From NCBI GenBank assembly GCA_016186955.1, contig JACPKP010000003.1, forward strand, positions 66,290-130,289: a DNA stretch of 64,000 bases. Reading direction: 5' to 3'. The position numbers and the translations under genes are program-made. Shown piece after piece: positions 5,187 to 45,775 of this stretch. The notes below the pieces were generated by a model. It did not search any database and was not told where the DNA came from. It saw only the letters and a program-made list of their open reading frames with translations. Each line of letters begins with the position of its first letter. Within the stretch, counting starts at the first letter, position 1. The stretch comes from Candidatus Daviesbacteria bacterium (GTDB taxonomy: Bacteria; Patescibacteriota; Microgenomatia; Daviesbacterales; UBA10151).

Positions 5187-6965
5187 ATGATGTTAAAAAA
5201 ATTAAAATCACAAAAAGTTCAACTTCTGATAATTATTATTTTAACCTTTCTTGCTTATTCAAATATCTTCACCAACCACCTTGTTATAGATGACCAGTTT
5301 TTTATCAAAGAATGGCCCCAGATGCAAAACTTTGATGTTGGTGTATTGCTTGGTGGTTCACTTCCTGCAAAGGCCAGCGGGGTCTACCGGCCGATCAGAA
5401 GCTTACTTTATGCATTTTATTACCAGATAGGAGGGGAGAATACATTCATTTATCATCTACACTCAATCCTCGTCCACCTGGCAGCAACATTGTTAGTCTA
5501 TTTTATAACCAGGCAGCTCATTCTCACCCCGGGGGTGAAAAACTTGAGATTACACCCCCGGGGTGGTCACTGGTTGGCTTTTTTAACTGCCCTTCTTTTC
5601 GGCCTGCACCCAATCCATACAGAAGAAATTACATATATCTCAGCCAGCATGGATGCAACAGGGATTGTGTTTTTGTTGGCCTCATTTTACCTGTATATGC
5701 GCTCGCAATTCACCCCGGGGGTGAAAAAAATGCAGCTACACCCCCGGGGTGTAGTCTTGGGAGGTTCAATAGCTTTCGCATTACTGGCATTTTTCACAAA
5801 CGAATTAACGCTGATACTGCCAGTACTCATCATTTTATATGAGATCTATTTTGGCAAAATTGCAGCCTCATCAATAAGATTGCCACGTCCTCCGATGGAC
5901 ATCGGAGTCCTCGCAATGACAATGTTTTACTTTGGTTTAACTGCTTTCTATATGTTTGTGAGGTTTTTTGTGGTCCAAGTTCCATTCAGCAGGGGGGATT
6001 ATCTGGCCCAAAGTTTTTACCATACTATGTTGGTGATGCCGGGAATCGTTTTGAAGTATATTTATCTTCTTGTTGTTCCTTTAAAACTTTCTTTTTACCA
6101 CACTCTTGCTCCTGGCTTTGAAAATTATATGGTGGCTTACACTCGTTTTGATTCAATTTTAAAAAAGTCATTTTTTGATGCTGATGTTTTATTGTCCCTG
6201 GTAGGATTGATTGGACTGATAGGACTTATTTTCTGGTTTTTCCAAAAAAACCGGTTGGTTAGTTTTTGTCTGGCCTGGTTTTTTATCACAATGTTACCAG
6301 TCTCATACATTATACCAGTTGGCCCGGCAATTTCTGAAAGATATCTATATTTGGCTTCCTTTGGGTTTTGTTTATTGGCAGGCTATCTGATGATAAAAAT
6401 TTCTAATTTCAAATTTCTAATTTCAAATTTCAAACTCCTTTTTTTAACTTTTAACTTTTTACTTTTAACTTTTTACTTTTACCAGACTTATCAACGCAAC
6501 TGGGATTGGCAGGATATACCCTCTCTTTACAAAAGCACATTAAGGGTTTATCAGAAGAGCCTAATTGCCAGCTATCATCTGGCTGTTTATTACTCAAATA
6601 ACCAACAATTTGCATTGGCAGTTCCTGCTTACCAGAAAGTATTAAGCATAGAGCCGGATTTTTATGAAGCCCATGCTAATTTAGGGAGCGCCTATTTTAA
6701 TTTAGGCCTGAAAGATGAGGCAGGGATCCAATACCAAAGGGCATTAAGCATTAATCCAAATTTTTTAGATGCCTATTTAGGTTTAGCATCTGTTTACAAA
6801 CAACAAGGAAAATCTAAAACTGCGGTGGAAATGTTAAAAAAAGGTTTAGATATTGATCCTGGAAAATACAAAACTTTAGGAGTGTTAAAAAGCCCGGAGG
6901 AGATCAATATTAAACTGGCTGGTATCCGTAAAATGCTAAAGGAGTTGCAAACTCCAACCCATTGA
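5187..6965 (+). CDS. TMTC-like (DUF1736) GT-C glycosyltransferase with C-terminal TPR; carries in-frame palindromic insertions
   Basis: Motifs GVYRPIRSLxYA, GLHPIHTEE, PVGPAISERYLYLASFGF and RNWDWQD, followed by TPR repeats (AHANLGSAYFNLG..., AYLGLASVYKQQG). Paralog of 7004..9091. Confidence 0.7.
   Translation: MMLKKLKSQKVQLLIIIILTFLAYSNIFTNHLVIDDQFFIKEWPQMQNFDVGVLLGGSLPAKASGVYRPIRSLLYAFYYQIGGENTFIYHLHSILVHLAATLLVYFITRQLILTPGVKNLRLHPRGGHWLAFLTALLFGLHPIHTEEITYISASMDATGIVFLLASFYLYMRSQFTPGVKKMQLHPRGVVLGGSIAFALLAFFTNELTLILPVLIILYEIYFGKIAASSIRLPRPPMDIGVLAMTMFYFGLTAFYMFVRFFVVQVPFSRGDYLAQSFYHTMLVMPGIVLKYIYLLVVPLKLSFYHTLAPGFENYMVAYTRFDSILKKSFFDADVLLSLVGLIGLIGLIFWFFQKNRLVSFCLAWFFITMLPVSYIIPVGPAISERYLYLASFGFCLLAGYLMIKISNFKFLISNFKLLFLTFNFLLLTFYFYQTYQRNWDWQDIPSLYKSTLRVYQKSLIASYHLAVYYSNNQQFALAVPAYQKVLSIEPDFYEAHANLGSAYFNLGLKDEAGIQYQRALSINPNFLDAYLGLASVYKQQGKSKTAVEMLKKGLDIDPGKYKTLGVLKSPEEINIKLAGIRKMLKELQTPTH
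5525..5565. repeat. 41-bp palindromic element, copy 1 (13-bp stem CACCCCGGGGGTG / CACCCCCGGGGTG, 15-nt loop), in-frame inside the CDS
   Basis: Perfect inverted repeat read directly from the sequence. It encodes an extra LTPGVKNLRLHPRG segment that the paralog 7004..9091 lacks. Confidence 0.75.
5711..5751. repeat. 41-bp palindromic element, copy 2 (same 13-bp stems, different 15-nt loop), in-frame inside the CDS
   Basis: Perfect inverted repeat. It encodes FTPGVKKMQLHPRG, which is absent from the paralog. Confidence 0.75.
6396..6482. repeat. Two adjacent 14-nt tandem duplications (TTTCTAATTTCAAA x2 and ACTTTTAACTTTTT x2, each with a partial third copy) inside the CDS
   Basis: Read directly. 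Translates to KISNFKFLISNFKLLFLTFNFLLLTFYFY. The words resemble the AT-rich intergenic motifs at 44462-44560. Confidence 0.6.
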
Positions 6966-12502: not shown

Positions 12503-15109
12503 TCATAGAGGTTTAAATGTTCCCAGCATTTTATAAAACAGGTCAAGTTTTATTGAATTTCCTGGATAAACTTTAAACTGCCAGACCTCACTCTCTTTGA
12601 TTAGAACAAAACGTTGTGAAGAATCCCCCTGGGGCGTGCCGAAAACCTGCACGGCTGCTATAAAACCTATAAAATTAATAGGCTGGACATCCAAAAGCAC
12701 ACCGGTCATCTTCAAGGGTGATTTGCTGATATGGTCTTCAATATTTTCCCCTTCTTTGAGCTTGGTGGCCAGAGCCTGGATATTGAGGCCCATACTGCCG
12801 GGGTTATTATCGGAAATCAGCATAATTTGAGCATTAGGATCTTTACTTACTGAAAACTTAGGGGGTATTTTGATGGAAAAGTGATTCCCCGGATCTTGTA
12901 TTTCTTTCCAGGAAACAGTCTGTTCTAAATTTGCCGGGTCGTTTAAATTATAAGTGCTGATTTTTTTAAGTATATTATCAGCCTCCAGGCCGATCGGGTC
13001 GCCGATCGGGGATAGTTGTTTCACAGTCTCAAACTCCAGTTTTGCCTGGTCTGTCCTGCCGATATTGATATATGATAACCCGAGGTTAAAATGTACGGAG
13101 AGATTTTTTACATCCAGCCTCTCCGCTTTGGCAAGGTAATGGTAAGAGCTGTTAAAATCCCTCATCCTTGCGTAAAACTCTCCCAGATGTGCCAGGACTT
13201 CGGCATTCTCCGGGTTTGTAGCTTTAGCCATGTTGAAATATTTCAGCGCCTGCCCATTATCACCTTGCTTTGCAAAATAGTCTCCGAGGTACTCATAGGC
13301 ATAGACATAGTCGTTTAAGATATTATTAAAGCCTCCGCGGTAGTTTCTTTCCAGGTAATAAGGTTTTGGGTGCAAAGGCGTGGTAAATTTAAAGTCATAC
13401 AAAGCTAAATTAAGTTTAGCTTCCTGCGTTGCCCGGATCACTTTTAAGGTTAATCCATTGGGGACGAATTTAAACCTTTTTTCATCCAGCCTGAGCTGTC
13501 CTCCGTCGGTAGCTGCCAAAGCAGAAGCCCGCAGGGTTAAATGGGTGACATAAATAGGGTGGGAGTTAATATTTTCATCAATAAACTGGTTCATGGCATC
13601 GTTATACTCAGAGTATTTTTTATATTGGATAATCTGTTCTATTTTGTCTGAAACTGATAAATTTGTGGCATGGCGGACCACGTCCCTTTCCCACCTGTTT
13701 ACATAAAACACATTTGCCGTTAAAGGTGTCACATCAGGCCTGTAAATATCCGCTTCATGCAAATAATGGGACAGTGAATTAAAAAAATCCCCGGTGCCGA
13801 TTATGATGGCGTTTTTCTCAAGCGGGGAGTATAAGTTATAGGCATAATCCGAAGCGAAATAGTGGTTGCTTCTGTCCAAGATCCAGAAGAAGCTTAAAAG
13901 CGGCAAAAAGCACAGTGAAAAAACCAGGAAAAGTTTTCTGCCGGATAACTTAAATTTTAAAGCAGCAAAATAAAAACCAGCCCCTAAAAAAATTGATAAA
14001 AATTCCCAGGCTAAAATAAACCATGATTCCTGGTTTCCGGAATAGTATATTCCGGAATATACGACATCAATTACCGGAACTGAGAGTAAAAATACCAGCA
14101 AAAACCTGTTTACCTTGTAAACATAGTAAATACCCAAAGCCATAAAAGGGAACAGGAATGGCGTAAATTGGATCAATGTATTCAATAGGAAATAAGAGAA
14201 TGATTGCGCAAAGATAAGCGGGGAGCCGGTGAAACCATTGATGGATCCTCCTTCAGGTTCATAAATATTTAATCCCTCGCCATGTAAGTGGCCAATAAAA
14301 AGTTTCCATGTTTGCGGGTTGCCCCAGTTGATAAAAGGCCAAGAACTGGCCCGGATCGGCAGATAAGAATAAACAGCAGAAATTGTGGCTGCAAAAATTA
14401 AACCTAAAATGATCAGTTTGGGTATATTTAAAGACTTACGGTTTAAAAACATGACATAAAGCGTGGCAGGCACCAGGGATGCGACAGTCGGGTTGGCGCC
14501 TGCAGCCAGCCCGTAGAGGAATGCAACCAGCAGGAGTATTTTAAATAGGTATGCAGAGTAGCGGTTAAAACTTAATTTTTTTTCAGTTATTTCACGTTTT
14601 TTAACCATAATTTTAAGAAGCAAATAGGCAAAAAGCGCCACAAAAAAATAGGTAAAAATAAAAGCCTCGGTATTTTGTGACTGTGACCAGTACTGGTAGG
14701 AAAATGCCAAGGCAGTTGCCCCAAAAAGGGCGGAAAGATGAGGGAGCCCGCCTGAAGCGCTATATGTAGCATTGCGGGCAGGTTTGTGGAAGAAAAAGTT
14801 GTTTTGTAAAATCAGCAGGATGATTTTGTATACCATCAGCAGCAAAGCCAAAGAAAAGATAATGGTAAAAAGCTCCAGGCTTAAAAGTTTGGTAAAAAAA
14901 GGTGTGACTTGGGTAAAAATATGGGATGCCATCATATAAAAAGGGAAACCTGGCGGATTTGGGATGCCAAGTGATGAGGCTGCTGCAATCATGGTTCCCG
15001 AATCTATCCAGAGTATTGATGGAGGTTTGGTGTAAAAGTAAATTAGAAAAGCCAGTATCAATAAAGATAAAGGCATAATGTTGGGGTATTTTAAAAAGCT
15101 TTTGGGCAT
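12503..15109 (-). CDS. TMEM260-like (DUF2723) GT-C glycosyltransferase with C-terminal TPR repeats
   Basis: N-terminal motif ILWIDSGTMIAAASSLGIPNPPGFPFYMM matches the DUF2723 WxDSGE...LGIxHPPGYPLY signature. At least 11 TM helices. C-terminal TPR: YAYEYLGDYFAKQGDNGQALKYF, AHLGEFYARMRDFNSS. Confidence 0.65.
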   Translation of the reverse strand: MPKSFLKYPNIMPLSLLILAFLIYFYTKPPSILWIDSGTMIAAASSLGIPNPPGFPFYMMASHIFTQVTPFFTKLLSLELFTIIFSLALLLMVYKIILLILQNNFFFHKPARNATYSASGGLPHLSALFGATALAFSYQYWSQSQNTEAFIFTYFFVALFAYLLLKIMVKKREITEKKLSFNRYSAYLFKILLLVAFLYGLAAGANPTVASLVPATLYVMFLNRKSLNIPKLIILGLIFAATISAVYSYLPIRASSWPFINWGNPQTWKLFIGHLHGEGLNIYEPEGGSINGFTGSPLIFAQSFSYFLLNTLIQFTPFLFPFMALGIYYVYKVNRFLLVFLLSVPVIDVVYSGIYYSGNQESWFILAWEFLSIFLGAGFYFAALKFKLSGRKLFLVFSLCFLPLLSFFWILDRSNHYFASDYAYNLYSPLEKNAIIIGTGDFFNSLSHYLHEADIYRPDVTPLTANVFYVNRWERDVVRHATNLSVSDKIEQIIQYKKYSEYNDAMNQFIDENINSHPIYVTHLTLRASALAATDGGQLRLDEKRFKFVPNGLTLKVIRATQEAKLNLALYDFKFTTPLHPKPYYLERNYRGGFNNILNDYVYAYEYLGDYFAKQGDNGQALKYFNMAKATNPENAEVLAHLGEFYARMRDFNSSYHYLAKAERLDVKNLSVHFNLGLSYINIGRTDQAKLEFETVKQLSPIGDPIGLEADNILKKISTYNLNDPANLEQTVSWKEIQDPGNHFSIKIPPKFSVSKDPNAQIMLISDNNPGSMGLNIQALATKLKEGENIEDHISKSPLKMTGVLLDVQPINFIGFIAAVQVFGTPQGDSSQRFVLIKESEVWQFKVYPGNSIKLDLFYKMLGTFKPL

Positions 15110-25649: not shown

Positions 25650-28571
25650 ATGATGCGTATAAAAGTTACCGCTTTCCTGAAATTTTCAATCAGCCTAATC
25701 CTGACAGGGTTTGCAGCTATACTGATTTTTTTTATGATCCGTCCGTTTTCCGGCTGGTATTTAAATTCTACCCCCGCAGTAGGGGTCGATTTATATAACA
25801 GCGCCACCTATGTTGCGTTCCATCTGAAACATTTTTCCTTGCCCTTGAATGGCTTTAAGGATATCTGGTTTGGAGGTTATCCTCTCGCTTTGGATTTTCC
25901 TCAGCTCTCATTTTTTCTGATGCTTCCTTTCGGAGCTTATTTCGGTCCCCATTTTGGGGTGCAAATATTTTCTATGGTTGTTTTATTTTTATTGCTTTTT
26001 TTCTGCTATCTTTTATATTTTCATCTTGCGAAAAACTTTGGGCTCGCCCTGTTTTTGACAGCCGCTGTTTTTTTGTCTGTCAACCTCTATGGTGATTTAA
26101 CATGGGCCGGGTCCATCCCGTACTTTACTTCGCAGTTATTTTTTCCCCTGGGTCTTTTGGCAGCAGTTTGTTATTTTGAAAAACCTGAACGGAGAAGAAT
26201 GGCAACATTAATTTTAGTCACGGGTTTAGGTATCCTTATTCATCCTCTTGGGGTTTTGGCATACCTGATTCCATCGGCTCTGATAATTATATTTCTGAAA
26301 GGGTTAATGCAACCCCATCCAATCAGCAAAATTTTGACACACAGTTCATTGTATATAGTAGGATTTCTGCTGGCCTCATTTATCTTTACCAGCGGTTATG
26401 TTGTGCCGATTTTGGTATCAATGCAGATCCCCAATATTGTGTCGGTTCCCCAGACGCCTGCTACCGAAACAACAGTTTCACCGGAAGCCGCGGCAGGCGC
26501 AAAAGCGATCGCCGATTTTTATAAAGGGCAAATTACTTCTTTATATACCCAGACAAATATCTGGATTTTTATATTGGTTGCAACAGGTGCAATCTTCTTC
26601 ATCTTAACTCTGCCAATTAGGGGAGATAAAAAAAGGTTGGGGTTGGCTTTGCCGCTTATTTTAATCACTATTTATGCTGCCGCCCATCCTGCGGTCAATC
26701 TGGCCGGGATTGTCAGCATATTCCGCCACGACCCATACAGGGCTTTCTGGCAGTTTCCGGTTGCAGTCGGAGCGCTGGCAGCCTATTTTTGGGGTTACGG
26801 GTTATCAGCGGTAGGTTTGAAATTGGCGCAGTTGAAAGTTTTAGGCAAGGTTACAAACTACCTTTTAATTTTTAGCACAACCTTAATTTTTGGTGTCATT
26901 GCTTTCGCAGTCTATATGGGCGAGGTGGAAAAAATGATTGCGCAAATCAGCGCACATTCCGAAGTGTCTTCTGCTTTTCCGGAGGCGTTAAATGATAATC
27001 TGCGTAAGGAAAATCTGGAAAAAATTACAAAATCTATAATCCCTTCATTCATAGACCCTCATGATAAAAATAAGAGGATGTACAGCGCCGATGCTACAAT
27101 TAATATCTGGTGGAACTCTTTTTTTGATATGCCTCTTGTTAGGGGTTATCTCGATCCTCCGATCGGTACCGATAGGAGGGGAGGCTTTTTTTGGTTGGAT
27201 ATAGCAATTGCTAACGATTCCCTGACCCGGGATTTTAAAATACCGGAAGACATAGCCTTAAATAATGCTAAGTTCCTGATGGATTGGTATGCGGTAAACT
27301 ATTTTGAGGGAGGCCGCCCAAGCAGCCGGGGTCCCAACCCCGGCCCGTCAAAGTACTTGCTCGATAATGCCATGCTTGACAAAGTGGAAGAGGTTACGGC
27401 TTCAGGAGCGCTACTAAGATGGATGACCGCCTCAGGTAAACCGGAGTGGCATCCGGAACTTACCCAAACTCTTAAGTACTTTAAAGTTGCGGATGAATAT
27501 GCCTCTCCCATATTGTCTCTTTCCGATGCCCCCTCAGTATTAGTTTTTAGTGATTGGCCGGGATATGAAGATTTTATGCGGGTTTTAGGGGCTTTTAATA
27601 TCAACTCTAAAAACCTGGTTCCTGTATACGGCGGAAAATACATTGACGATTTTGATCTTAAATCCTTAAACCGGTTCGAAGCGGTTTTTTTACACAATTA
27701 TGATTACCGTAACCGGAAAGTTTTTGATAAGTTTACAGATTATGTTAACCGGGGAGGAAAAATTTTTGTTGACACAGGGGGTGAAGTAAAAGATTCAAAA
27801 TCCGATAAATTGCCTGAGATTTTTCCTATGAAAGACTCTGTGAGTGGGGAGATGGGAAAGGAATGGGAGTTGGGCTTGTTTGAAAGCCCGTTTATAAAAG
27901 AGGTGGAACTTGATTCTTTCGGCCCGTTAATTTTCAATCAAAATCCTTGGAAAATTACAACACCCAAAAATAAGGATTTAAAGGCAGGTTCAACAGTTAT
28001 ATTAACCCATAAAGATAAACCAATCCTTGTTGAGAGGAAGATTGGGCAAGGTGATGTAGTCTGGTCCGGTTTTAATGCCATCTACCATTACAATCAATAC
28101 AGGAGCAGGTCAGAAGGCAAGCTGCTGCTGAACATAGTAGAAGAGTTGACCAGATTCAAGGACGTCCCATCTGTCATCCATACTTCTGTATCCTGGGTCA
28201 AACCGGAGAAAGTTATTGCCAGCGTGGACCAGAAAGCTGGAGGGATATTATTTAAAGAGCAGGGATATGAGGGGTGGCAGGCAAAGATTATCTCATCCGG
28301 CAAAGCGCTGCCTATTTTTAAGGCAGGACCAACTTTTCCGGGCTTTATGTATGTTCCTTTAGATGGTGTAGATTTCGGATCAAAGGTAGAATTTAACTTT
28401 GTCGGCGACTACCATAATTTTATATGGGCAGCGATAAACCTTATAACAGTACTGATACTTTTGGAAATGATTTTTTTTAAAGGTAAGTTAGTGGGAGACT
28501 GGCTTGGGTTGAGAGCTGGGAAATTCAGGAGCAAAGTATTTTCCTGGTGGGAAAAAGAGGAAGAAGTATGA
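25650..28571 (+). CDS. Large GT-C-like membrane protein (973 aa) with extracytoplasmic C-terminal domain and terminal TM anchor; tandem paralog of 28568..31411
   Basis: About 13 N-terminal TM helices, a C-terminal domain of roughly 500 aa, and a final TM helix (FIWAAINLITVLILLEMIFF). Collinear with the next gene, for example NIWWNSxxxMPLxRGYxDPP and DTGGEVK. Confidence 0.5.
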   Translation: MMRIKVTAFLKFSISLILTGFAAILIFFMIRPFSGWYLNSTPAVGVDLYNSATYVAFHLKHFSLPLNGFKDIWFGGYPLALDFPQLSFFLMLPFGAYFGPHFGVQIFSMVVLFLLLFFCYLLYFHLAKNFGLALFLTAAVFLSVNLYGDLTWAGSIPYFTSQLFFPLGLLAAVCYFEKPERRRMATLILVTGLGILIHPLGVLAYLIPSALIIIFLKGLMQPHPISKILTHSSLYIVGFLLASFIFTSGYVVPILVSMQIPNIVSVPQTPATETTVSPEAAAGAKAIADFYKGQITSLYTQTNIWIFILVATGAIFFILTLPIRGDKKRLGLALPLILITIYAAAHPAVNLAGIVSIFRHDPYRAFWQFPVAVGALAAYFWGYGLSAVGLKLAQLKVLGKVTNYLLIFSTTLIFGVIAFAVYMGEVEKMIAQISAHSEVSSAFPEALNDNLRKENLEKITKSIIPSFIDPHDKNKRMYSADATINIWWNSFFDMPLVRGYLDPPIGTDRRGGFFWLDIAIANDSLTRDFKIPEDIALNNAKFLMDWYAVNYFEGGRPSSRGPNPGPSKYLLDNAMLDKVEEVTASGALLRWMTASGKPEWHPELTQTLKYFKVADEYASPILSLSDAPSVLVFSDWPGYEDFMRVLGAFNINSKNLVPVYGGKYIDDFDLKSLNRFEAVFLHNYDYRNRKVFDKFTDYVNRGGKIFVDTGGEVKDSKSDKLPEIFPMKDSVSGEMGKEWELGLFESPFIKEVELDSFGPLIFNQNPWKITTPKNKDLKAGSTVILTHKDKPILVERKIGQGDVVWSGFNAIYHYNQYRSRSEGKLLLNIVEELTRFKDVPSVIHTSVSWVKPEKVIASVDQKAGGILFKEQGYEGWQAKIISSGKALPIFKAGPTFPGFMYVPLDGVDFGSKVEFNFVGDYHNFIWAAINLITVLILLEMIFFKGKLVGDWLGLRAGKFRSKVFSWWEKEEEV

Positions 28572-31411
28572 GAAAAACAGTAAAATTTTTGGTTGAGGTA
28601 ATTTTATTCCTATTGGCGGCCGGGATCATTGCAGCAACTTTCCTGCCAATAGCTAACTGGTATTTTAGTGCAACACCCCTTTGGGGTGTTGATTTTTACT
28701 ACACTGCTACAATTGTAAATTTGATTCAAGCAAACCTGACGATACCACCATTAGGATGGGGGTATGCGTGGTTTAGCGGGTGGCCGATAGTTTCTAATTA
28801 TCCTATTTTACATTATTACATCATACTCGCCTTCACACATTTCTTTGATCTTATTTCAGCAATAAAAATTTGGATGCTGACAAGCCTTTTTATCTATTTT
28901 TTAGGATGCTACATAGTTTTTTACCAGCTTTGTAAAAACTGGGCGGTTTCAACAGTTTTATCTATTGGAGGAATTTATTCTGTTGGAGTATACGGAACGC
29001 TGATGTGGGGGGGGAGTTTGCCCTCCCATGCAACCCAGGCTTTTTTCCCCTGGGTTTTGTTTTTACTGATTTGCTACCTTAAAAACAACCAGACGAAGTT
29101 TCTTCTTTTGGGGGCTCTTCTGACCGGCATCTCCATTTTGGCGCATCCCCAGATAGTCATTGCTTATATTTATCCCTCGTCCTTCATACTTTTTATAACC
29201 TGGTTTGGAAGAATAAAATTGATTAACCGGATAAAATCATATGTTTTCTATTTTATAGTGTCATTTATTGTTGGTTTACCCGGATTCTATGTCGTTTTTT
29301 TGAAGGCGTTGCAAAGTATAGTTAACATTCATGCCAATAAAATTGCTGCATCAACGGTTACTGTTTCGCAAAAAGCGGTAAATGAGATTGAAGCTTTCAG
29401 TAGGGCCCAGCCGCTGAGGATTTTTCATGATACCAATACCGCCGTCTTCATTTTGCTTGGCGCAGCTTTAGCATTTTTTCTATTGGGGTTGATTTTACGG
29501 GTTTCAAAACAACGGCTTCTTGATGTCTTACCTGTTGTTTTTTTGGCGGGTTGGTTAACCGCCTATATATGGATGTTCGCATATGGGATTTCTATCTATC
29601 ACGGAGGTTGGTACCGTCTTTTTTGGACAACACCCCTTTGGTTAGGTATGGTAGTTGCTGTTTTTTGGGGATATTTCCAGCATTCATTGAAAGACAGGCT
29701 AGTTGTTCATTGGCATTTTAAAGGGATGATTGTAATAGTGAGTTTTCTGATTCTTGGCGGAGGTTTATATCTGGTGCTTTATTTTTCATCAGGATTTAAG
29801 GAGAGAGTAATTGCTAGAAGTACGCCGTCTTCAGCTTTTCCTGATGTTTTGAACTTAAGGGTTGATCCAGATGGGAGAGAGCAGTTGAAAACCGAGCTTG
29901 TGCCCAATTGGCTTGACCCCCAGCGCACTGATTACAGGCTTTATGGTTCTGACCAGACTGTTAATATCTGGTGGAATTCCCTTTATAAGATGCCTCTTGC
30001 GCGTGGGTATTTTGATCCGCCAAGCTCCTCTGAATATACTTTTTGGCTGGATGCTGCATTAAGCCAAGATAGTTCAACCGGAGAAGACCAATTAGCAGGC
30101 TCTTTTAAGTATCCGAAAGAGATTGCTTTCAACAATTCACTATTTTTGGTTGACTGGTATGCTGTTAAATTCGCGGAAGCCGGGCATGCAAGTCCCACGG
30201 TGTATGCACCGTTACCCAAAAGCCTGACTGATAAAAATTTGCTTGTTAATGAGCAGGAATTAGAGTTTAATAAGGAAAAATATAATAAGTTGAACCTGGT
30301 TCTCCACTATTTTGAGTTTAAAGATGAGTTAGTATCACCGATCCTTACAGCTACAAATGCCCCGGTCTTGTGCATTTTTGGTTCCGACCAGGGTTTTGGA
30401 ACCATTATCAGAGGGCTTGCGGATCTTAACCTGTCTTCACAACAGGTCATACCTTTAAAATTTGGTAAGTATCTGGATAAAATTAGCTTAAGCGATTTAC
30501 GCTTATGTGACGCTGTCATAATTTACGATTATGATTATCAGGATAAAGCGAAAGCATTCAGGCAGATAAGCGACTATGTTAAAAAAGGAGGCAAGGTATT
30601 CATAGATACCGGCGGGGAGGTTAAACAGTCTGAGGATAAAGGTCCTCTGCCGGATTTTTTTCCCATTGATAAAACTTACAGAAAGCCGTTAGGCAGGACT
30701 TGGGAGTTTGAGGTCGCAGATGATCCTATAACAAGAGATGTTGACTTTTCTACTTTTGATCCGCCAATTTTTGATGGGTCAGAATGGAATCTGTCTTTTC
30801 CCCAACAACCTGACGATGTACGGCAAAATGCAGTAATTTTATTGAAGAATCACACGAAGCCCATATTGGTTTCAGAAAATATCGAAAATGGTTTTGTTTT
30901 TTGGAGCGGGATGAACCTGCCTTACCACATCATCCGTAACCATAATACAAACGAGTTGGTATTTTTTAAAAAAATTATTGAAAAATTGATCGGGTCTGAA
31001 AAACCTACACCACCTCAATCTACCGTAAAATTTATTTCAGCCGGTAAACGCGAGCTTTCTACCTCAGGCGCCAGGGGCGTTTTATTTAAAGAACAGGCTT
31101 ATGACGGATGGAATGCAGTATGGACGGAAAACGGTAGAAACAGGGATCTTAAAGTGTATAAAGCCGGACCGGCAGATCCTGGATTTATTTTTGTGCGCCT
31201 TCCTGCCGGGTCCGGTACGGGAAAGCTCATCTTTTCCTATAACGGTTCAGGTAATACCTGGTTGGTTACGCTTTTATCAGTAACACTTTTTATATTAATT
31301 TTGGATGAGGTAATTTTTGGGGAAAAACTGTTGGGGGGAGCAAGACGTTGGATTTGGAGGAAATTCCACCACCGTTTAACCGGTTGGTGGGGTAGGGAAG
31401 ATGAAATTTAG
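28568..31411 (+). CDS. Large GT-C-like membrane protein (about 947 aa); paralog of 25650..28571 (ORF track start 28547; ATGA overlap favours 28568)
   Basis: Same architecture and conserved blocks as the upstream gene. C-terminal TM helix WLVTLLSVTLFILILDEVIF. Confidence 0.5.
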   Translation: MRKTVKFLVEVILFLLAAGIIAATFLPIANWYFSATPLWGVDFYYTATIVNLIQANLTIPPLGWGYAWFSGWPIVSNYPILHYYIILAFTHFFDLISAIKIWMLTSLFIYFLGCYIVFYQLCKNWAVSTVLSIGGIYSVGVYGTLMWGGSLPSHATQAFFPWVLFLLICYLKNNQTKFLLLGALLTGISILAHPQIVIAYIYPSSFILFITWFGRIKLINRIKSYVFYFIVSFIVGLPGFYVVFLKALQSIVNIHANKIAASTVTVSQKAVNEIEAFSRAQPLRIFHDTNTAVFILLGAALAFFLLGLILRVSKQRLLDVLPVVFLAGWLTAYIWMFAYGISIYHGGWYRLFWTTPLWLGMVVAVFWGYFQHSLKDRLVVHWHFKGMIVIVSFLILGGGLYLVLYFSSGFKERVIARSTPSSAFPDVLNLRVDPDGREQLKTELVPNWLDPQRTDYRLYGSDQTVNIWWNSLYKMPLARGYFDPPSSSEYTFWLDAALSQDSSTGEDQLAGSFKYPKEIAFNNSLFLVDWYAVKFAEAGHASPTVYAPLPKSLTDKNLLVNEQELEFNKEKYNKLNLVLHYFEFKDELVSPILTATNAPVLCIFGSDQGFGTIIRGLADLNLSSQQVIPLKFGKYLDKISLSDLRLCDAVIIYDYDYQDKAKAFRQISDYVKKGGKVFIDTGGEVKQSEDKGPLPDFFPIDKTYRKPLGRTWEFEVADDPITRDVDFSTFDPPIFDGSEWNLSFPQQPDDVRQNAVILLKNHTKPILVSENIENGFVFWSGMNLPYHIIRNHNTNELVFFKKIIEKLIGSEKPTPPQSTVKFISAGKRELSTSGARGVLFKEQAYDGWNAVWTENGRNRDLKVYKAGPADPGFIFVRLPAGSGTGKLIFSYNGSGNTWLVTLLSVTLFILILDEVIFGEKLLGGARRWIWRKFHHRLTGWWGREDEI

Positions 31412-37529: not shown

Positions 37530-39857
37530 CTATCTCTTTTGCATTAAAGTAACTTCTGCTTGACCGGTTTTGAATTTTTTGACATTTATAAATTTCCTGT
37601 TAATTTCATTTTTTACAACTTGGGATTCTTTATCATCAGTCCAGATATTCGTATCTACTAACCAAAACTCTTTTGCGGTGATATTTTCCTTTTTACCGCC
37701 AATATACTTGATTGTTTGGGGAGAAAATAGGTTTTTAGTAAGTAAAATATTTTCCCGCTTGGTATAAAAGTAGGTTGAATAAAAAGTAAGGGAGGAGGTA
37801 TGTGCAATGGGAATTTTTGGGTTCGAGTTTATAATTTGAATGATTGGCTTAATTTTTATTCCATTAAAAAAAGGACCCGTGAGTTGGATGAGAGAGGTAG
37901 AGCTTAGTAGGAACAGACATATAAGAATCAGTTTTTTAGATTTAAAAGACGCGAGACCCAAAGCCATAATCATTAAAAAAACCGGTGAATAAACCGAAAA
38001 CCCTTTCGGTGAAAAGATGGGTATAAAAAAACCCGCCCCGGATAACAATATAAGCGGGATACCATAAACCAGGCTTAAATAAAAACTTTTAATTAACCCT
38101 TTGAGAAATAAAACAAGGGAGACAATTGTCAGAGGGATAAATAAAAACAAGTAATACCATGGTAATTTTGGGAAATTGCGCAAGGTAACTTCTCCGATCC
38201 CCCCCAGGGTTGGTGAGGCGAGAGATGCCGGCAATGACAATATACTATTGGGGCAGGAGCAACCATTATGAGGTGTTTGTATTGAAAAGAAAAGCCATGG
38301 GATAAACAAGATTACTTCAATCATCAAAATGACAAACCATCTACTGCGAAGCTGCGGTTTTTTCACCAGTAAAAATAAAGTTAAAGGAAAGAAAATCAAT
38401 ATTACATAAAATTGTGTATATAACCCCAAAATAGAAACCAAAACAAATAAAATAGTATATTTAAAGTCAGGTTTCTCAAATAGTTTAAGAAAAGATAAAC
38501 ACATTGCGCTGATAAAAAAAATGGCCATGGAATGAAGCCTGGCAGTGGTTGCGAGATAAACTGTAAGAGGGGAAAGCGAAAATAATGCGGCCGCAAGGCT
38601 TGCCGCTTTTTTATTGAAGTCTGCCGAAAACCGTGGACTATTAGTCCACGGATGAAGGCGACGGAAAGAAGCGATTTCTGAAAGAAACCGCTCCGATGTA
38701 CATCGGAGCGGAGCTTCATTAAATCTCTGGGTAATTTTAAACAGTAACAAAATAGTTGCTAAATTAAATAATAGTGAAGGCAGCCTTAAAAAAACCTCAT
38801 TACTGTTGACCTTTAGCCAAAAATGCATCAGGGTATAATACAAAGGAGGATTATTGTCCGTTAAAACAGCCTCAAAAACTGTTTTTAATGGAAGTTTTGC
38901 AATATGGTATGTAAAGGCTTCATCAAACCAGAAATCATGGGATATCAGAGCATAAATCCGGAAAAATAAACCTAAGAAAAAAGATAGAATAAGAATCTTA
39001 GTTTCAAACCGGCTGTTTTTAAAGTTCCACCAAAAACCCCACCACCGCTCATTTAAAGTATTTCTTTTTTTAAAAACTAACAGGTAAAAAGGTGCAATAA
39101 ATAATTGAAAAATTGTAACAACAATTTTTTGCGGTAGATTACCGTAAGTATATATAATACTGAAAGTGGCCTTGTAATAATAATGATATTTTAAAGGGAA
39201 GTATGTCGGAGTTGATTTGCTTTTGCCATGATAAACAAAGGTATCCGGGAAATAGACAATTTTGCCGCCTTTTTTTTTAATCCTCAGGCTAAAATCAGGG
39301 TCATCTCCATAAAAAAAATATTTTTTATCAATTAACCCAATTTTTTTCAGGGTTTTTTGGGGAAAAATATGAACCAGCCCTTCCAAATAATCAAATTTTT
39401 GGCCCTCATTTTTAATAATTACCGGAGTTACTAACCCGGTATAGAAATTAATATTTATGGTTGGCGGGAGCAACCGGTGGGAGTCTTTAGCATAAACTTT
39501 GACACCCAAAAGGGCAATGTCCGGATCCCGGTTGAATTTCTCAACTACTTTAACAAAGAAACCCTTTGAAACTGTTACATCGGACTGTATGGAAAAAATC
39601 AACTCTCCGCGGGCTTCCTTATAACCGATATTAAATGCCGGCATCCCTAAGTTTTTAGGCAGTTGAATAACTTGAACTCTCGGGAAAAAATGTTTGATTT
39701 TAGAGCATGTCTGATCAGTTGAGGCGTTATCCACAACAATTATTTCGTATTTATTTTTGGGGTAATCTGCCCTATTTATTGAATATAGAAGATTTGAGAC
39801 ATCGCGCTTACTATTCCATGTTAAAATGACAACAGAAACAAAAGGAAACCTAGTCAT
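37530..39857 (-). CDS. Fusion protein: N-terminal GT2 glycosyltransferase plus C-terminal ArnT/PMT-like GT-C membrane domain (775 aa)
   Basis: N-terminus FPFVSVVILTWNS...IIVVDNASTDQT...SIQSDV (GT2). C-terminus from aa ~290, FWFDEAFTYHIAKLP...DNNPPLYY, is collinear with the whole of 40422..41780, with the DE motif in the first loop. Confidence 0.65.
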   Translation of the reverse strand: MTRFPFVSVVILTWNSKRDVSNLLYSINRADYPKNKYEIIVVDNASTDQTCSKIKHFFPRVQVIQLPKNLGMPAFNIGYKEARGELIFSIQSDVTVSKGFFVKVVEKFNRDPDIALLGVKVYAKDSHRLLPPTININFYTGLVTPVIIKNEGQKFDYLEGLVHIFPQKTLKKIGLIDKKYFFYGDDPDFSLRIKKKGGKIVYFPDTFVYHGKSKSTPTYFPLKYHYYYKATFSIIYTYGNLPQKIVVTIFQLFIAPFYLLVFKKRNTLNERWWGFWWNFKNSRFETKILILSFFLGLFFRIYALISHDFWFDEAFTYHIAKLPLKTVFEAVLTDNNPPLYYTLMHFWLKVNSNEVFLRLPSLLFNLATILLLFKITQRFNEAPLRCTSERFLSEIASFRRLHPWTNSPRFSADFNKKAASLAAALFSLSPLTVYLATTARLHSMAIFFISAMCLSFLKLFEKPDFKYTILFVLVSILGLYTQFYVILIFFPLTLFLLVKKPQLRSRWFVILMIEVILFIPWLFFSIQTPHNGCSCPNSILSLPASLASPTLGGIGEVTLRNFPKLPWYYLFLFIPLTIVSLVLFLKGLIKSFYLSLVYGIPLILLSGAGFFIPIFSPKGFSVYSPVFLMIMALGLASFKSKKLILICLFLLSSTSLIQLTGPFFNGIKIKPIIQIINSNPKIPIAHTSSLTFYSTYFYTKRENILLTKNLFSPQTIKYIGGKKENITAKEFWLVDTNIWTDDKESQVVKNEINRKFINVKKFKTGQAEVTLMQKR
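38588..38711. repeat. Cluster of perfect small palindromes inside the CDS: CCGTGGACTATTAGTCCACGG at 38631-38651, CCGCTCCGATGTACATCGGAGCGG at 38688-38711, and GCAAGGCTTGC. Corresponds to an insertion of about 35 aa relative to the paralog
   Basis: Read directly. The paralog 40422..41780 lacks the segment APLRCTSERFLSEIASFRRLHPWTNSPRFSADFN. Confidence 0.65.
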
Positions 39858-40421: not shown

Positions 40422-41780
40422 TCATTTAAGTTTAAGGTATTCTACAGAAATATTATCTACCCTGAACGCTTTTTCTATAATGAAATTTTGGCTTACTTGT
40501 TTTAAGACTTCAGCCCTCTCTTTTGGGTCAACCCAGATTTTTGTGTCAACAAACCACGCGTTTGAGCGTGGAAGCTCCGGTTTTTTGCCGCCAACGATAT
40601 AAAAAACCGTTGCCGGGGAAAGCGGGTTTTTTGTAAGTAAAATATTCTGTTTGTTTAAATAGTAATTTATTGAATAATATGTATAAGGGGAGGTGTGCAC
40701 TATAGGCAAGCTGTCCCCGGATACAATATCCGCTACAGACTGCAGCCTGTCACTTTTAAAAAATGGGTGTGTCAGTTGAATAATTGAAACACTAAAAATC
40801 AATACTAATATAACCATAGCAACCACTTTTTTGCTGGTTCCCTGAGCCAATATTAAAAAAAATAAGGGGTTGAACACCCCAAAAGCTTTTGGGGAAAATA
40901 CAGTAAAGAAACTTCCCAAAATTGTTAAAATTGCCAATGGAATCAAGAATATTGATGATAAAAAGGATTGTCTTAAGCCTTTTAAAAAAATGATAAAAGT
41001 TAAAATGGCTGTCACTGAAAAAAGAATTATTAGTGCAAAAGGAAGAGTAGGAAAAGCTCTCAGTGTTATGAGTCCCACACCTCCAATAATTGGTGAAACC
41101 AAAGATGCGGGAAGTGATAAGAGTGCAACCGGGCAAGCACATTCACTATGATTGATTAGCGCAGAAAGATATAGCCAGGGCAATAAGGGGACTGTAATGG
41201 TTGCCAAAATTCCAGCCCAAATTTTTTTACTAAAGCCTGCTTTAAAAGCCAACCAGGAGAAAGGCAGCAATAAAAGCATTAAATAATACTGGGTATAAGC
41301 GCTAATAATTCCAAAAAGAGTAAAGAAAACATAATTTTTAAGCACCCTTTTTTTTAACAGAGAGAAAAACAAGCTTGTTAAAAAAATCGCTTCTAACATC
41401 CCCAATGCGTGCAACCGGGCTTCTGTTGCCATATAAATTGTCAAAGGAGAAACGGCAAATAACATCGCCGCAATCAACCTGGTGGATCTTCCGATTTGAT
41501 TTCTAAATTGGAAATAAATTATCTGCATTGCTGCCAAACTGAAAAGCAGCGAAGGTATACGCAGAAGTATTTGATTGCTGCCCAGTTTTAAAACAAAATG
41601 AATTATGAGGTAATAAAAAGGGGGGTTGTTATCTGAAAGGGCAGCAGGGAAAAATTGGTTCAGCGGTAACCTGGCCAGGTGGTAGGTAAATGCTTCATCA
41701 TACCAAAACGCCCGTTGGTTTATTGCTAATACCCGGAGTAATATTCCCAGCATAAAAACCAGCACGAAAGTCTTATCCAT
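40422..41780 (-). CDS. ArnT/PMT-like GT-C membrane glycosyltransferase; paralog of the C-terminal half of 37530..39857
   Basis: AFWYDEAFTYHLARLP...DNNPPFYY. About 12 TM helices. Confidence 0.55.
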   Translation of the reverse strand: MDKTFVLVFMLGILLRVLAINQRAFWYDEAFTYHLARLPLNQFFPAALSDNNPPFYYLIIHFVLKLGSNQILLRIPSLLFSLAAMQIIYFQFRNQIGRSTRLIAAMLFAVSPLTIYMATEARLHALGMLEAIFLTSLFFSLLKKRVLKNYVFFTLFGIISAYTQYYLMLLLLPFSWLAFKAGFSKKIWAGILATITVPLLPWLYLSALINHSECACPVALLSLPASLVSPIIGGVGLITLRAFPTLPFALIILFSVTAILTFIIFLKGLRQSFLSSIFLIPLAILTILGSFFTVFSPKAFGVFNPLFFLILAQGTSKKVVAMVILVLIFSVSIIQLTHPFFKSDRLQSVADIVSGDSLPIVHTSPYTYYSINYYLNKQNILLTKNPLSPATVFYIVGGKKPELPRSNAWFVDTKIWVDPKERAEVLKQVSQNFIIEKAFRVDNISVEYLKLK

Positions 41781-44461: not shown

Positions 44462-44496
44462 AATTCAAAATGCAAAATTCAAAAGGTAAAAGTACA

Positions 44497-44531
44497 ATTC
44501 AAAAGTAAAAAGCTTTCAAACTTTTGAATTT
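44497..44531 (-). terminator. Hairpin (11-bp stem AATTCAAAAGT/ACTTTTGAATT) followed by a T-run on the minus strand; putative intrinsic terminator of the methyltransferase gene 44531..45775
   Basis: Perfect inverted repeat in the 69-nt gap. The minus-strand downstream sequence is T-rich. Confidence 0.45.
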
Positions 44532-45775
44532 TAACTTGAAATTTTAACTTTTGATTTTTGACCTTTGACTTTTTCAGGGTATAGTTTCGCCATTTGCTCC
44601 CTTGAGAATAGCATAAAGATGCCGTTTTTGCTTTTGTAAGTTGTTTTGCAGATGGGACATGAAAGAGTTTTGGTGGATTTATGGTAATTTAAGCCTGGTT
44701 TCTGTTTACAATTGGGACAAGCTAAAAGTTCAAATAATTTCTGTTCAGAAAGTCGCTCGCCACCTTCAAAAAAACCGCGAGTCCTTCCACGCGACTCGCT
44801 TGGAGTTTGTCTCGCGCCGTAAAAGTTCTCGGATGTGATGTTATGTGGTGCGCTCGACTGCACTACATTTTTTTGAATTGGTGGCTTCGCTTCTTTCTCT
44901 GATTTTTTGCATAAAGCCTCTATTCCTCCGCCTAAAATCTGCAAAAGGATGTTTTTATATAATGGGGGATTGAGCCAGCCCCGTACCGGATGGTACTGGG
45001 GCCAACCTTTTTTTGGTGTTTTGATTTGCACACTAATTGGGCCATAAGGGAAAGCCTTTAATGTGGCTTGAACTGCATCAAATACATTTAGGGTTTTTTC
45101 CCAGGTTTTTAAAGAAAAAGCTTCCTCTAAGATATTATTTTCAATCTCACTTTTGCCTATTTTGGAAATGAAATGCAAGACAAGCAAGCTCCTGAGGATT
45201 TTTTCAAACCAGCGCAAGTTCCTGTCCCTTTGCCATAAATTCAAGTTGATCATTTGGGCAACTGGCTCTTCATTAAAATAAAAATAACCTCCCGGCGCCA
45301 ACACCCTATATATCTCTTCCAAAACCGGTTTTGGGTCAGGAAAATGATGGAGTGTTTCAACAGTGAATATAAACGGTAGGGAGTTTGTTTTAAATGGCAA
45401 ATTATAAACATCACAGCAAACCCGAAACGGCATTTTTTTAAAATGCAGCTTGTCTTTATAGTGGTTAGCAAGTAGAAGCGTGTCATATGAGATGTCTGTG
45501 GCAAATCCCTGGGTTTTATATTGATCTTCCAAAAACATTGCCCCTTGCCCAATTCCTGAGCCAATTTCTAAATATGGCTCCAAAGTCATTTCATGTGAAA
45601 TTAAAGATTTAAAATATCTTTTGTAATCTTTAACCCTGCCGCGGATTATAGATAAATTTTGTTTATAAGATGGTTCACCAGGATACATAACTTCCTGCCC
45701 TGCAAATTGTTTAGCCAGCTTACGCCTGAAGTTTACTTCTCCCTGTTGGTTTCTCAGGTTTTGCAGGTTTGACAT
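44531..45775 (-). CDS. SAM-dependent methyltransferase with C-terminal Trm112-like zinc ribbon
   Basis: EIGSGIGQGAMFL motif I. C-terminal CPNCK...CPICK...NGIFMLF. Confidence 0.6.
   Translation of the reverse strand: MSNLQNLRNQQGEVNFRRKLAKQFAGQEVMYPGEPSYKQNLSIIRGRVKDYKRYFKSLISHEMTLEPYLEIGSGIGQGAMFLEDQYKTQGFATDISYDTLLLANHYKDKLHFKKMPFRVCCDVYNLPFKTNSLPFIFTVETLHHFPDPKPVLEEIYRVLAPGGYFYFNEEPVAQMINLNLWQRDRNLRWFEKILRSLLVLHFISKIGKSEIENNILEEAFSLKTWEKTLNVFDAVQATLKAFPYGPISVQIKTPKKGWPQYHPVRGWLNPPLYKNILLQILGGGIEALCKKSEKEAKPPIQKNVVQSSAPHNITSENFYGARQTPSESRGRTRGFFEGGERLSEQKLFELLACPNCKQKPGLNYHKSTKTLSCPICKTTYKSKNGIFMLFSREQMAKLYPEKVKGQKSKVKISS

Follow-up and report, generated by a model that had tools for sequence, protein, structure and literature searches.

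A multi-hairpin palindromic repeat inserted in-frame in a membrane glycosyltransferase gene of Candidatus Daviesbacteria bacterium

The insert and its host gene

The DNA of interest, hereafter the window, is a 64,000-nucleotide (nt) stretch of a Candidatus Daviesbacteria bacterium genome (contig JACPKP010000003.1, positions 66,290–130,289); all positions below are window positions, unless given with a contig handle. This 64-kb stretch has a G+C content of 39% and is nearly all coding, consisting of a glycosylation cluster with GT2 and GT1/GT4 glycosyltransferases, methyltransferases, epimerases, and several GT-C/PMT_2 and TPR membrane proteins. Our focus is a gene encoding a GT2–GT-C fusion protein, which is interrupted by a short insert of hairpin-forming DNA. 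The insert stands out as a G+C island of 0.44–0.48, versus ~0.21–0.34 in the gene parts on either side. An initial annotation placed an in-frame insertion of ~35 amino acids (aa) at 38588–38711, built it from three small perfect palindromes, and noted its absence from a paralog at 40422–41780. The features of the locus, as delimited here, are as follows.

37530–39857, minus strand: host gene (775 aa), with an N-terminal GT2 domain (aa 7–215) and a C-terminal GT-C/PMT_2 membrane domain
38619–38720, minus strand: net insertion of 102 nt (34 codons, N380–D413; peptide NEAPLRCTSERFLSEIASFRRLHPWTNSPRFSAD), without counterpart in homologs
38715–38723, minus strand: left direct repeat TTTAATGAA (codons F379-N380-E381), a candidate target-site duplication
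38688–38711, minus strand: hairpin 1, a perfect 24-nt palindrome CCGCTCCGATGTACATCGGAGCGG with core CTCCGATGnnCATCGGAG, located where the repeat family described below has its hairpin A
38680–38687, minus strand: coding-strand T-run TTTCTTTC, immediately 3' to hairpin 1 (GAAAGAAA on the plus strand)
38631–38651, minus strand: hairpin 2, CCGTGGACTAATAGTCCACGG, consisting of CCGTGGACTA-T-TAGTCCACGG (10-bp arms, one central base)
38626–38630, minus strand: coding-strand T-run TTTTC, immediately 3' to hairpin 2 (GAAAA on the plus strand)
38610–38618, minus strand: right direct repeat TTCAATAAA (codons F414-N415-K416)
38593–38603, strand not assigned: third palindrome GCAAGGCTTGC (GCAAG-G-CTTGC, 5-bp arms), outside the insert, in the conserved codons AASLA

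The protein, which has 100% identity to a Candidatus Daviesbacteria glycosyltransferase in NCBI, was aligned in a set of 16 sequences: 11 fusion orthologs (41–53% identical), one partial protein, the in-window paralog at 40422–41780, and three standalone GT39 proteins. Residues N380–D413 correspond to a clean 34-column gap in all aligned sequences except the window protein; that is, the insert is missing from 15 homologs (the 11 fusion orthologs, the paralog and the three GT39 proteins). A BLASTP comparison with the paralog likewise left the residues around 380–413 unmatched. The reported absence from the paralog is borne out by both comparisons, for a segment of 34 aa. The protein-level conservation in orthologs that would speak against an insertion was found in none of them, and the locus can be described as a lineage-specific, in-frame insertion made of hairpin DNA, much as initially proposed. 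Its limits have shifted: the inserted DNA spans 38619–38720, or 38610–38720 when the element is taken together with its flanking direct repeat.

Two of the three palindromes are exactly as first described. The third lies outside the insert, since its AASLA codons align with conserved residues in all homologs, and with its 5-bp arms it is probably a chance occurrence. The two palindromes of the insert are not due to chance. The window contains 39 perfect GC-rich hairpin matches versus 3–8 in five shuffles, a tally in which a nested hairpin is counted once per loop size and the shuffles are scored for stems of at least 8 bp rather than for stems as long as these. The 171-nt region folds at −59.6 kcal/mol (z = −5.7), with none of 200 shuffles as stable. 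In the predicted RNA fold each hairpin sits within a longer imperfect palindrome; hairpin 2 is nested in an outer stem, GTCGCC/GGCAGAC. The motif GAAA(A)ACC, said to precede every palindrome, is the plus-strand view of the coding-strand T-runs that follow the two hairpins: GAAAA and GAAAGAAA do precede these two on the plus strand, while the third palindrome lacks it.

A composite repeat family and its hairpin cores

A scan of JGI metagenomes for the core of hairpin 2, CCGTGGACTnnnAGTCCACGG, returned at least 120 loci. On low-G+C contigs, hairpin 2 is found with conserved flanks (CTTCAT before; TTTTCG or TGTTC after), within repeats of ~105–165 nt. One subfamily has the layout AATAAAC, hairpin A (CCGAGGG...CCCTCGG), TTTTCT, spacer, CTTCAT, hairpin 2, TTTTCGCGAAGTTTGAATAAA; outside these ends, the sequence varies between loci. 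Seven intergenic repeats from other metagenome contigs, one of them in a Woesebacteria genome, were used to train a covariance model, R1, with the window sequence left out. R1 matches the window over model positions 1–117 of 117 (62.7 bits, E 2.2e-13), delimiting one further feature.

38610–38720, minus strand: full-length repeat copy, from AATGAA to AATAAA, right-hand direct repeat included

For comparison, R1 gives 95–143 bits for the training members, 40–68 bits for other low-G+C subfamilies, and 17–24 bits for the hairpin-2-only loci of high-G+C contigs. Given that hairpin 2 alone scores 17–24 bits, ~40 bits of the window score come from the remaining architecture: a hairpin and T-run at the hairpin A position, the spacer, and the AATGAA and AATAAA ends. 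At the site where the family has CCGAGGG...CCCTCGG and then TTTTCT, the window copy has a hairpin of the CTCCGATG type and then TTTCTTTC. The flanks of hairpin 2, CTTCAT and TTTTCG, are exactly those of the Woesebacteria-type repeats. Judged from this end-to-end match, the insert appears to be one composite element of ~110 nt with a fixed architecture, which takes the place of the three separate small elements of the initial annotation. From sequence comparison, the membership of the window copy in the R1 family is well supported but not perfect. A hidden Markov model (HMM) of the family's left flank aligned hairpin A onto hairpin 2, showing the two hairpins to be related modules.

We propose that the element is a small non-coding multi-hairpin repeat of Microgenomates, a group of the Candidate Phyla Radiation (CPR), measuring ~100–120 nt among its nearest relatives, with longer variants reaching ~165 nt. 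Its general architecture would be AATRAA, hairpin A, T-run, ~30-nt spacer, CTTCAT, hairpin CCGTGGACT-loop-AGTCCACGG, TTTTCG, AATAAA. The repeat is dispersed and mostly intergenic, in either orientation, with 28 of 30 related copies lying outside any long open reading frame (ORF). One copy (L153) comes from a contig encoding a ThyA with 100% identity to that of Candidatus Woesebacteria RIFCSPHIGHO2_01_FULL_38_9 (Microgenomates), and is situated there between folA and a convergent gene. At least three contigs carry more than one copy: there are two each on L184 and L213 (of which 5891–5995 and 2328–2486, respectively, were not picked by the search pattern), and two, L145 and L151, on a single 172-kb contig, with differing outer flanks. 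A further copy not picked by the search pattern lies on a Woesebacteria-like contig (L257 1357–1463). Relative to the upstream gene, 14 copies have the same orientation and 14 the opposite one. The intergenic bias and the even orientation count favour a selfish repeat over a dedicated terminator; on the 14:14 count, the idea of oriented terminators was dropped.

The stems of the repeat are maintained by compensatory changes. Over the three helices of 29 copies, pairing holds in 92.5% of cells (28–42% for slid partners) and both sides have changed in 22 of 27 pairs, in an alignment that was fitted to R1 and hence favours structure. In the L257 copy, a hairpin CCGTGGGTT/AACCCACAG replaces CCGTGGACT/AGTCCACGG, amounting to two compensatory pairs. 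Rfam 15 contains no family matching the insert, the whole window or 16 related loci (hits were limited to a chance-level snoRNA match, tRNAs, and one group II intron elsewhere). The Woesebacteria loci that are syntenic around thyA-folA gave no empty-site comparison, as their downstream genes differ.

On contigs with a G+C content of at least 0.5 (L132–L251; e.g., L230 270–579, L189, L236), the palindrome CCGTGGACT(GGA/TCC/CGA)AGTCCACGG is preceded by (G)GTAG and accompanied by hairpins GTCGCTACGCGAC and CACCGCTACGCGGTG; as many as three copies can lie within 300 nt. These groups look like classical clusters of repetitive extragenic palindromes (REPs) or bacterial interspersed mosaic elements (BIMEs) in unrelated bacteria.

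The core of hairpin 1, CTCCGATGnnCATCGGAG, is also widespread. It occurs twice in the window (0.04 expected) and, with one genome per species scanned, at no fewer than 118 loci, 63 of those listed being labelled as CPR lineages. The initial suggestion that the hairpins form a class of repeated elements is upheld to this extent: they are found in many other genomes. As read from the sequence, the core contains no stop codon in any of its six frames. Among the low-G+C loci, the perfect palindrome extends by at least 4 bp at 30 of 85 sites (0.33 expected), and many core sites are flanked by an A-tract and, on the opposite side, a T-tract; L049 contains exactly the same 24-nt palindrome. In several genomes the core occurs two or three times, each genome having conserved flanks of its own (L014/L094, L119/L106, L042, L039/L111, L072/L092). 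R1 finds no copies in 650 kb of loci carrying the hairpin 1 core, which indicates that the composite family is not general to CPR. Both hairpin cores chiefly form the tips of intergenic repeats; some occurrences of the hairpin 1 core are within genes. In a Patescibacteria MurD (L044 2916–4460), it lies in a 67-residue in-frame insert (~3684–3884) relative to PDB 3lk7, the DNA of which forms nested GC-rich stems ~170 nt long, two perfect hairpins included. It is also present in a variable linker of an L-aspartate oxidase and, in L115, in the open linker that separates the two parts of a long ORF (by eye, a putative Sua5-TsaE fusion).

Several further observations concern this core. In tRNA-like units (L073 4–254, L027 1336–1655, L102 1801, L093 213–325), CTCCGATGnnCATCGGAG replaces the anticodon arm, with a D-arm GCTCAGTCGGTTAGAGCA before the core, GGGTC after it, and an implied loop of 8 nt; a Falkowbacteria contig has a tandem array of three. 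None of these units is called by ARAGORN or by the Rfam tRNA model. In a Saccharibacteria RNase P RNA (L022 4076–4387; Rfam, 142 bits), positions 4099–4116 near the 5' end form the hairpin CTCCGATGTTCATCGGAG, a putative P3. At L108 (~626–690), the hairpin is directly followed by CTGATGAGTCGAAAACGACGAAAC, resembling a hammerhead ribozyme core; Rfam gave no hammerhead match there at the gathering threshold. Scans of viral contigs returned seven matches to the hairpin 1 core, without informative context. The motif CCGAT recurs at hairpin tips in many CPR loci; oligonucleotide statistics of the window revealed no general excess of CCGATG or CTCCGAT words.

Origin of the insert

The direct repeats TTTAATGAA and TTCAATAAA match at seven of nine positions and are 102 nt apart; we estimate the probability of such a match by chance at a few per cent. 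Copies of the family start and finish with AATAAA. We envisage that a repeat copy was inserted, by a transposition-like mechanism, at a TTYAATRAA site in the F-N-K codons of a loop between transmembrane helices (TM) 3 and 4 of the GT-C domain, probably duplicating ~6–9 bp of the target. The pre-insertion protein would have read ...ITQRFNKKAAS..., and the empty-site DNA ...CAGAGATTTAATAAAAAAGCG.... A gain of 102 nt without a stop codon in the gene's frame would leave the ORF open, and the element would be translated into 34 extra residues, which may be tolerated as a poorly ordered loop.

An AlphaFold2 model, based on the 16-sequence alignment, is consistent with such a loop: the mean pLDDT is 83.2, with residues 381–410 at only 42–49, and the insert is located between helices 354–379 and 408–428. 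The conserved DE loop of GT-C enzymes faces outward (ArnT/PMT fold). Counting helices from this loop (FWFDEAFTY) places the insert in the TM3–TM4 loop, on what is probably the extracytoplasmic side. Taken together, we consider it likely that a selfish multi-hairpin repeat has been inserted into the gene, and that it is translated and tolerated—perhaps neutrally—as a disordered loop.

A number of points weigh against this account. Movement of the element is not directly seen: there is no pair of empty and filled sites, the nearest ortholog is 53% identical, an exact look-up of the fusion protein in an assembly index gave no match, and look-ups of neighbouring genes in public assemblies of the same organism found no strain without the insert. 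The direct repeat is imperfect (seven of nine positions), AT-rich and, in the family, inseparable from the element's own termini. No terminal inverted repeats were seen by eye in the family alignment, where the termini are direct (AATAAA...AATAAA), this being no formal search. Nor was a transposase identified, in a Pfam summary of 40 window ORFs comprising the 25 commonest of 70 families and including no search aimed at REP-associated tyrosine transposases (RAYTs). The R1 family has only one copy within the window. Part of the R1 score arises by construction, because the family was retrieved by means of hairpin 2; HMMs of the flanks, when built on sequence alone, fail to find the window site, and hairpin A of the window is of the CTCCGATG type, that of the family of the CCGAGGG type. 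The over-representation of both cores is argued from context rather than from counts, with no composition-matched control palindrome scanned. Finally, no single contig of the Logan assemblies spans both hairpins.

This last point raises the question of an assembly artefact, in which two halves were misjoined, or the hairpin sequence was created, during metagenome assembly. Logan contigs of the same organism do end exactly at the palindromes: L002 stops inside hairpin 1, while L001 stops, and L010 begins, four bases before hairpin 2. However, the window sequence on either side is identical, base for base, in these three contigs, which come from two other runs, and L001 and L010 adjoin, sharing 4 nt. 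The reading frame continues across the join, and the joined sequence agrees from end to end with an external repeat family, making an artefact extremely unlikely. It is also very unlikely that the palindromes arose in situ—by template switching, snap-back synthesis during replication or repair, or local duplication—without a pre-existing element. The arms are perfect, the hairpin 1 flank GATTTAATGAAG can pair with a downstream CTTTCAGAAATC as an inverted local copy would, and the window lacks a second family copy; yet the whole 111-nt stretch aligns with repeats of other organisms, including the non-palindromic CTTCAT, TTTTCG and AATAAA, and both hairpin cores are found in hundreds of other loci.

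Two further explanations place the effect of the hairpins in RNA or on the ribosome. The hairpins could serve as latent intragenic terminators or attenuators that cut GT-C transcription in the absence of coupled translation, or they could pause ribosomes while the protein is being inserted into the membrane. Both are sense-oriented, the fold is stable (z-score above), and of the terminator-like sites in an 18-kb scan, hairpin 1 ranks first (10 pairs, seven of them G-C; tail TTTCTTTC). Hairpin 1 has the form of an intrinsic terminator (a GC-rich stem-loop and a U-run), yet it lies 380 codons into an ORF, where termination would yield non-stop mRNAs. The 14:14 orientation of family copies is unlike that of a dedicated terminator, the position is empty in every ortholog, which argues against a needed regulatory site, and terminator-like sites are not enriched in the region (18 found, 17.5 expected). 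A role at the RNA level is, on balance, unlikely. Alternatively, the insert could remain untranslated if ribosomes were to hop from AAT (N380) to AAT (N415), as in the GC-cluster-derived byps of Magnusiomyces mitochondria. The identical AAT codons at the two ends, within the direct repeat, and the GC-rich, structured nature of an insert in an AT-rich gene recall the byp setting (PMC8811140). Here, though, the frame is kept and no stop codon is present, such that hopping is not needed, and the codon after the putative take-off site (GAA) is ordinary. We know of no report of bypassing in CPR bacteria, and rate this the least probable of the explanations considered.

In-frame insertion of palindromic repeats has precedents. 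Rickettsia palindromic elements (RPEs) are palindromic repeats of ~100–150 bp that occur in reduced genomes, both between genes and in-frame in unrelated genes; copies inside genes add a peptide segment compatible with the protein fold (PMC10969869). The window copy behaves similarly: it is inserted in-frame, and according to the alignment and the AlphaFold2 model the host protein fold is kept. The likeness is one of behaviour. In contrast to RPEs, the present family has a CPR/Microgenomates host, comprises two or three terminator-like hairpins, and is mostly intergenic; moreover, each RPE family encodes a conserved peptide, whereas the hairpin 1 core is read in different frames at different sites. 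A second parallel is offered by the GC clusters of yeast mitochondria (in var1, and as Magnusiomyces byps), which are likewise GC-rich palindromes with short terminal repeats in AT-rich DNA. These clusters are mostly intergenic, with repeats read as target duplications, are found in-frame in var1, and have hairpins that merge and shuffle (PMC8811140). Unlike them, the window copy is in a bacterium rather than an organelle, is longer than most byps, and gives no evidence of bypassing or ribozyme activity.

The family also shares with REPs and BIMEs, which are mobilized by RAYTs, the form of short intergenic hairpin repeats, and high-G+C copies of the palindrome CCGTGGACT...AGTCCACGG are directly preceded by GTAG. 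A classical REP was rejected, as the window copy and the low-G+C family have CTTCAT rather than GTAG (GT[AG]G) before the hairpin. The bases adjoining hairpin 2 are TTCAT (GAAAA on the other strand), and those adjoining hairpin 1 are AAGCT (GAAA on the other strand). Among SPRITE and other repeats that are terminator-like or of the miniature inverted-repeat transposable element (MITE) type (Correia, ERIC, BOX), intragenic copies of ERIC and BOX can form in-frame fusions. These repeats have unrelated hosts, and neither terminal inverted repeats nor a parent insertion sequence could be identified for the present family; for want of these two features, a MITE is not demonstrable.

In-frame colonization of genes by palindromic repeats is best known from Rickettsia and yeast mitochondria, and is now seen in a CPR bacterium; in the literature on CPR or Patescibacteria, we found no description of palindromic in-frame insertions. 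Such inserts make loops in membrane glycosyltransferases longer and more varied, with consequences for how CPR proteins are annotated, aligned and modelled in structure, and model R1 provides a means to mask or count the elements. The contig breaks seen at the palindromes in de Bruijn-graph assemblies raise the possibility that hairpin repeats systematically fragment CPR assemblies, or that they mark strain variation at these places.

Other palindromic elements in the window

A second gene of the window, at 5187–6965, encodes a TPR-glycosyltransferase and contains three palindromic elements.

5525–5565 and 5711–5751, plus strand: two 41-bp elements, CACCCCGGGGGTG-N15-CACCCCCGGGGTG, with 13-bp arms
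5879–5920, plus strand: nested palindrome ATTGCCACGTC-CTCCGATGGACATCGGAG-TCCTCGCAATGAC, read in-frame as LPRPPMDIGVLAM

The 41-bp elements fold at approximately −29 kcal/mol and share one reading frame, giving TPGVKNLRLHPRG and TPGVKKMQLHPRG. In the paralog, gaps of 13, 8 and 12 residues coincide with the elements at 5525, 5711 and ~5890, respectively, and most of 21 aligned homologs are without the inserts. The peptide TPGVKKMQLHPRG is shared, in the corresponding loops, by P0162, a paralog from this genome, and by P0163 and P0179, which are encoded on other contigs; this could reflect an old insertion, repeated insertion, or gene conversion. Other homologs have different Arg/Pro/Ser-rich inserts at these loops. 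Long Arg/Pro/Ser/Gly-rich inserts are present at the same two or three loops of the Microgenomates TPR-glycosyltransferases P0164, P0170, P0174, P0177 and P0178; one of them reads ...VIPAQAGIQRRKDWIPVFTGMT, which we take to be the usual translation of dRS3/NTS-type palindromes. A scan of viral contigs for the 41-bp element gave no match.

The initial annotation grouped the 41-bp elements and the insert at 38619–38720 into one class of palindromic elements that colonizes the loops of membrane glycosyltransferases. Paralog gaps and homolog inserts confirm that such loops do collect insertions. The elements themselves belong to unrelated families: R1 scores the 41-bp CACCCCGGGGGTG elements at only 9–16 bits, and no sequence relation to the insert was found, indicating that several element families are involved. 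Targeting of glycosyltransferase loops did not hold up either, given that 28 of 30 related copies are outside long ORFs and that in-frame copies occur in unrelated genes, such as the MurD described above. It is more likely that membrane-protein loops are places where an insertion survives.

The nested palindrome contains the window's second copy of the hairpin 1 core (5890–5907), in-frame, in a reading frame different from that of the insert. On the reverse strand, 5879–5920 reads GTCATTGCGAGGA...GCAAT, a GTCATT lead and palindrome that can be compared to CGTCATTCCCGCG...GGGAAT of the NTS/Ssn-related motifs, hairpin repeats that are bound and cut by GIY-YIG single-stranded DNA (ssDNA) nucleases (PMC11893778). 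Unlike in NTS, the loop at 5879–5920 is filled by a CTCCGATG hairpin; the similarity is one of resemblance only, and does not apply to 38610–38720. The outer arms of 5879–5920 also occur, with other inner hairpins, in metagenome-assembled genomes (MAGs) of Endomicrobiia (L092), Gottesmanbacteria (L123) and a lineage labelled as Gammaproteobacteria (L072).

A broader and rather doubtful reading is that hairpin modules with near-fixed stems (CTCCGATGnnCATCGGAG, CCGTGGACTnnnAGTCCACGG) are shared across phyla as exchangeable repeat tips, spread or homogenized by a hairpin-specific ssDNA enzyme, with a stop-free design that lets them colonize CPR protein loops in-frame. The tips would then cap GTAG-type REPs, CPR multi-hairpin repeats, NTS-like nested palindromes, and the P3 stem of RNase P. 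Colonization of surface glycosyltransferases and MurD would, in that case, be a standing source of protein-length variation in reduced genomes, and cores truly shared across phyla would point to an unrecognized mobilization or recombination system.

Other GC-rich palindromes lie inside ORFs, at 12990–13009 (CCGATCGGnnnnCCGATCGG), 27156–27179 (CCTCCGATCGGTACCGATAGGAGG) and 27325–27344 (GCCGGGGTCCCAACCCCGGC); sites 28671 and 29032 are within a 954-aa gene. The hairpins at 27156, 27325 and 28671 were rejected as insertions, the segments concerned being conserved or of about equal length in paralogous genes. Tandem paralogous membrane proteins of ~950–970 aa are encoded at 25650–28568 and 28547–31408 (plus strand), with a 22-nt overlap. 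The longest inverted repeat of the window, at 44465–44561, has 42-nt AT-rich arms that are 76% complementary, with 13 nt between them; situated between two genes of the minus strand, it overlaps a promoter-like TTGACC-16-TATAGT.

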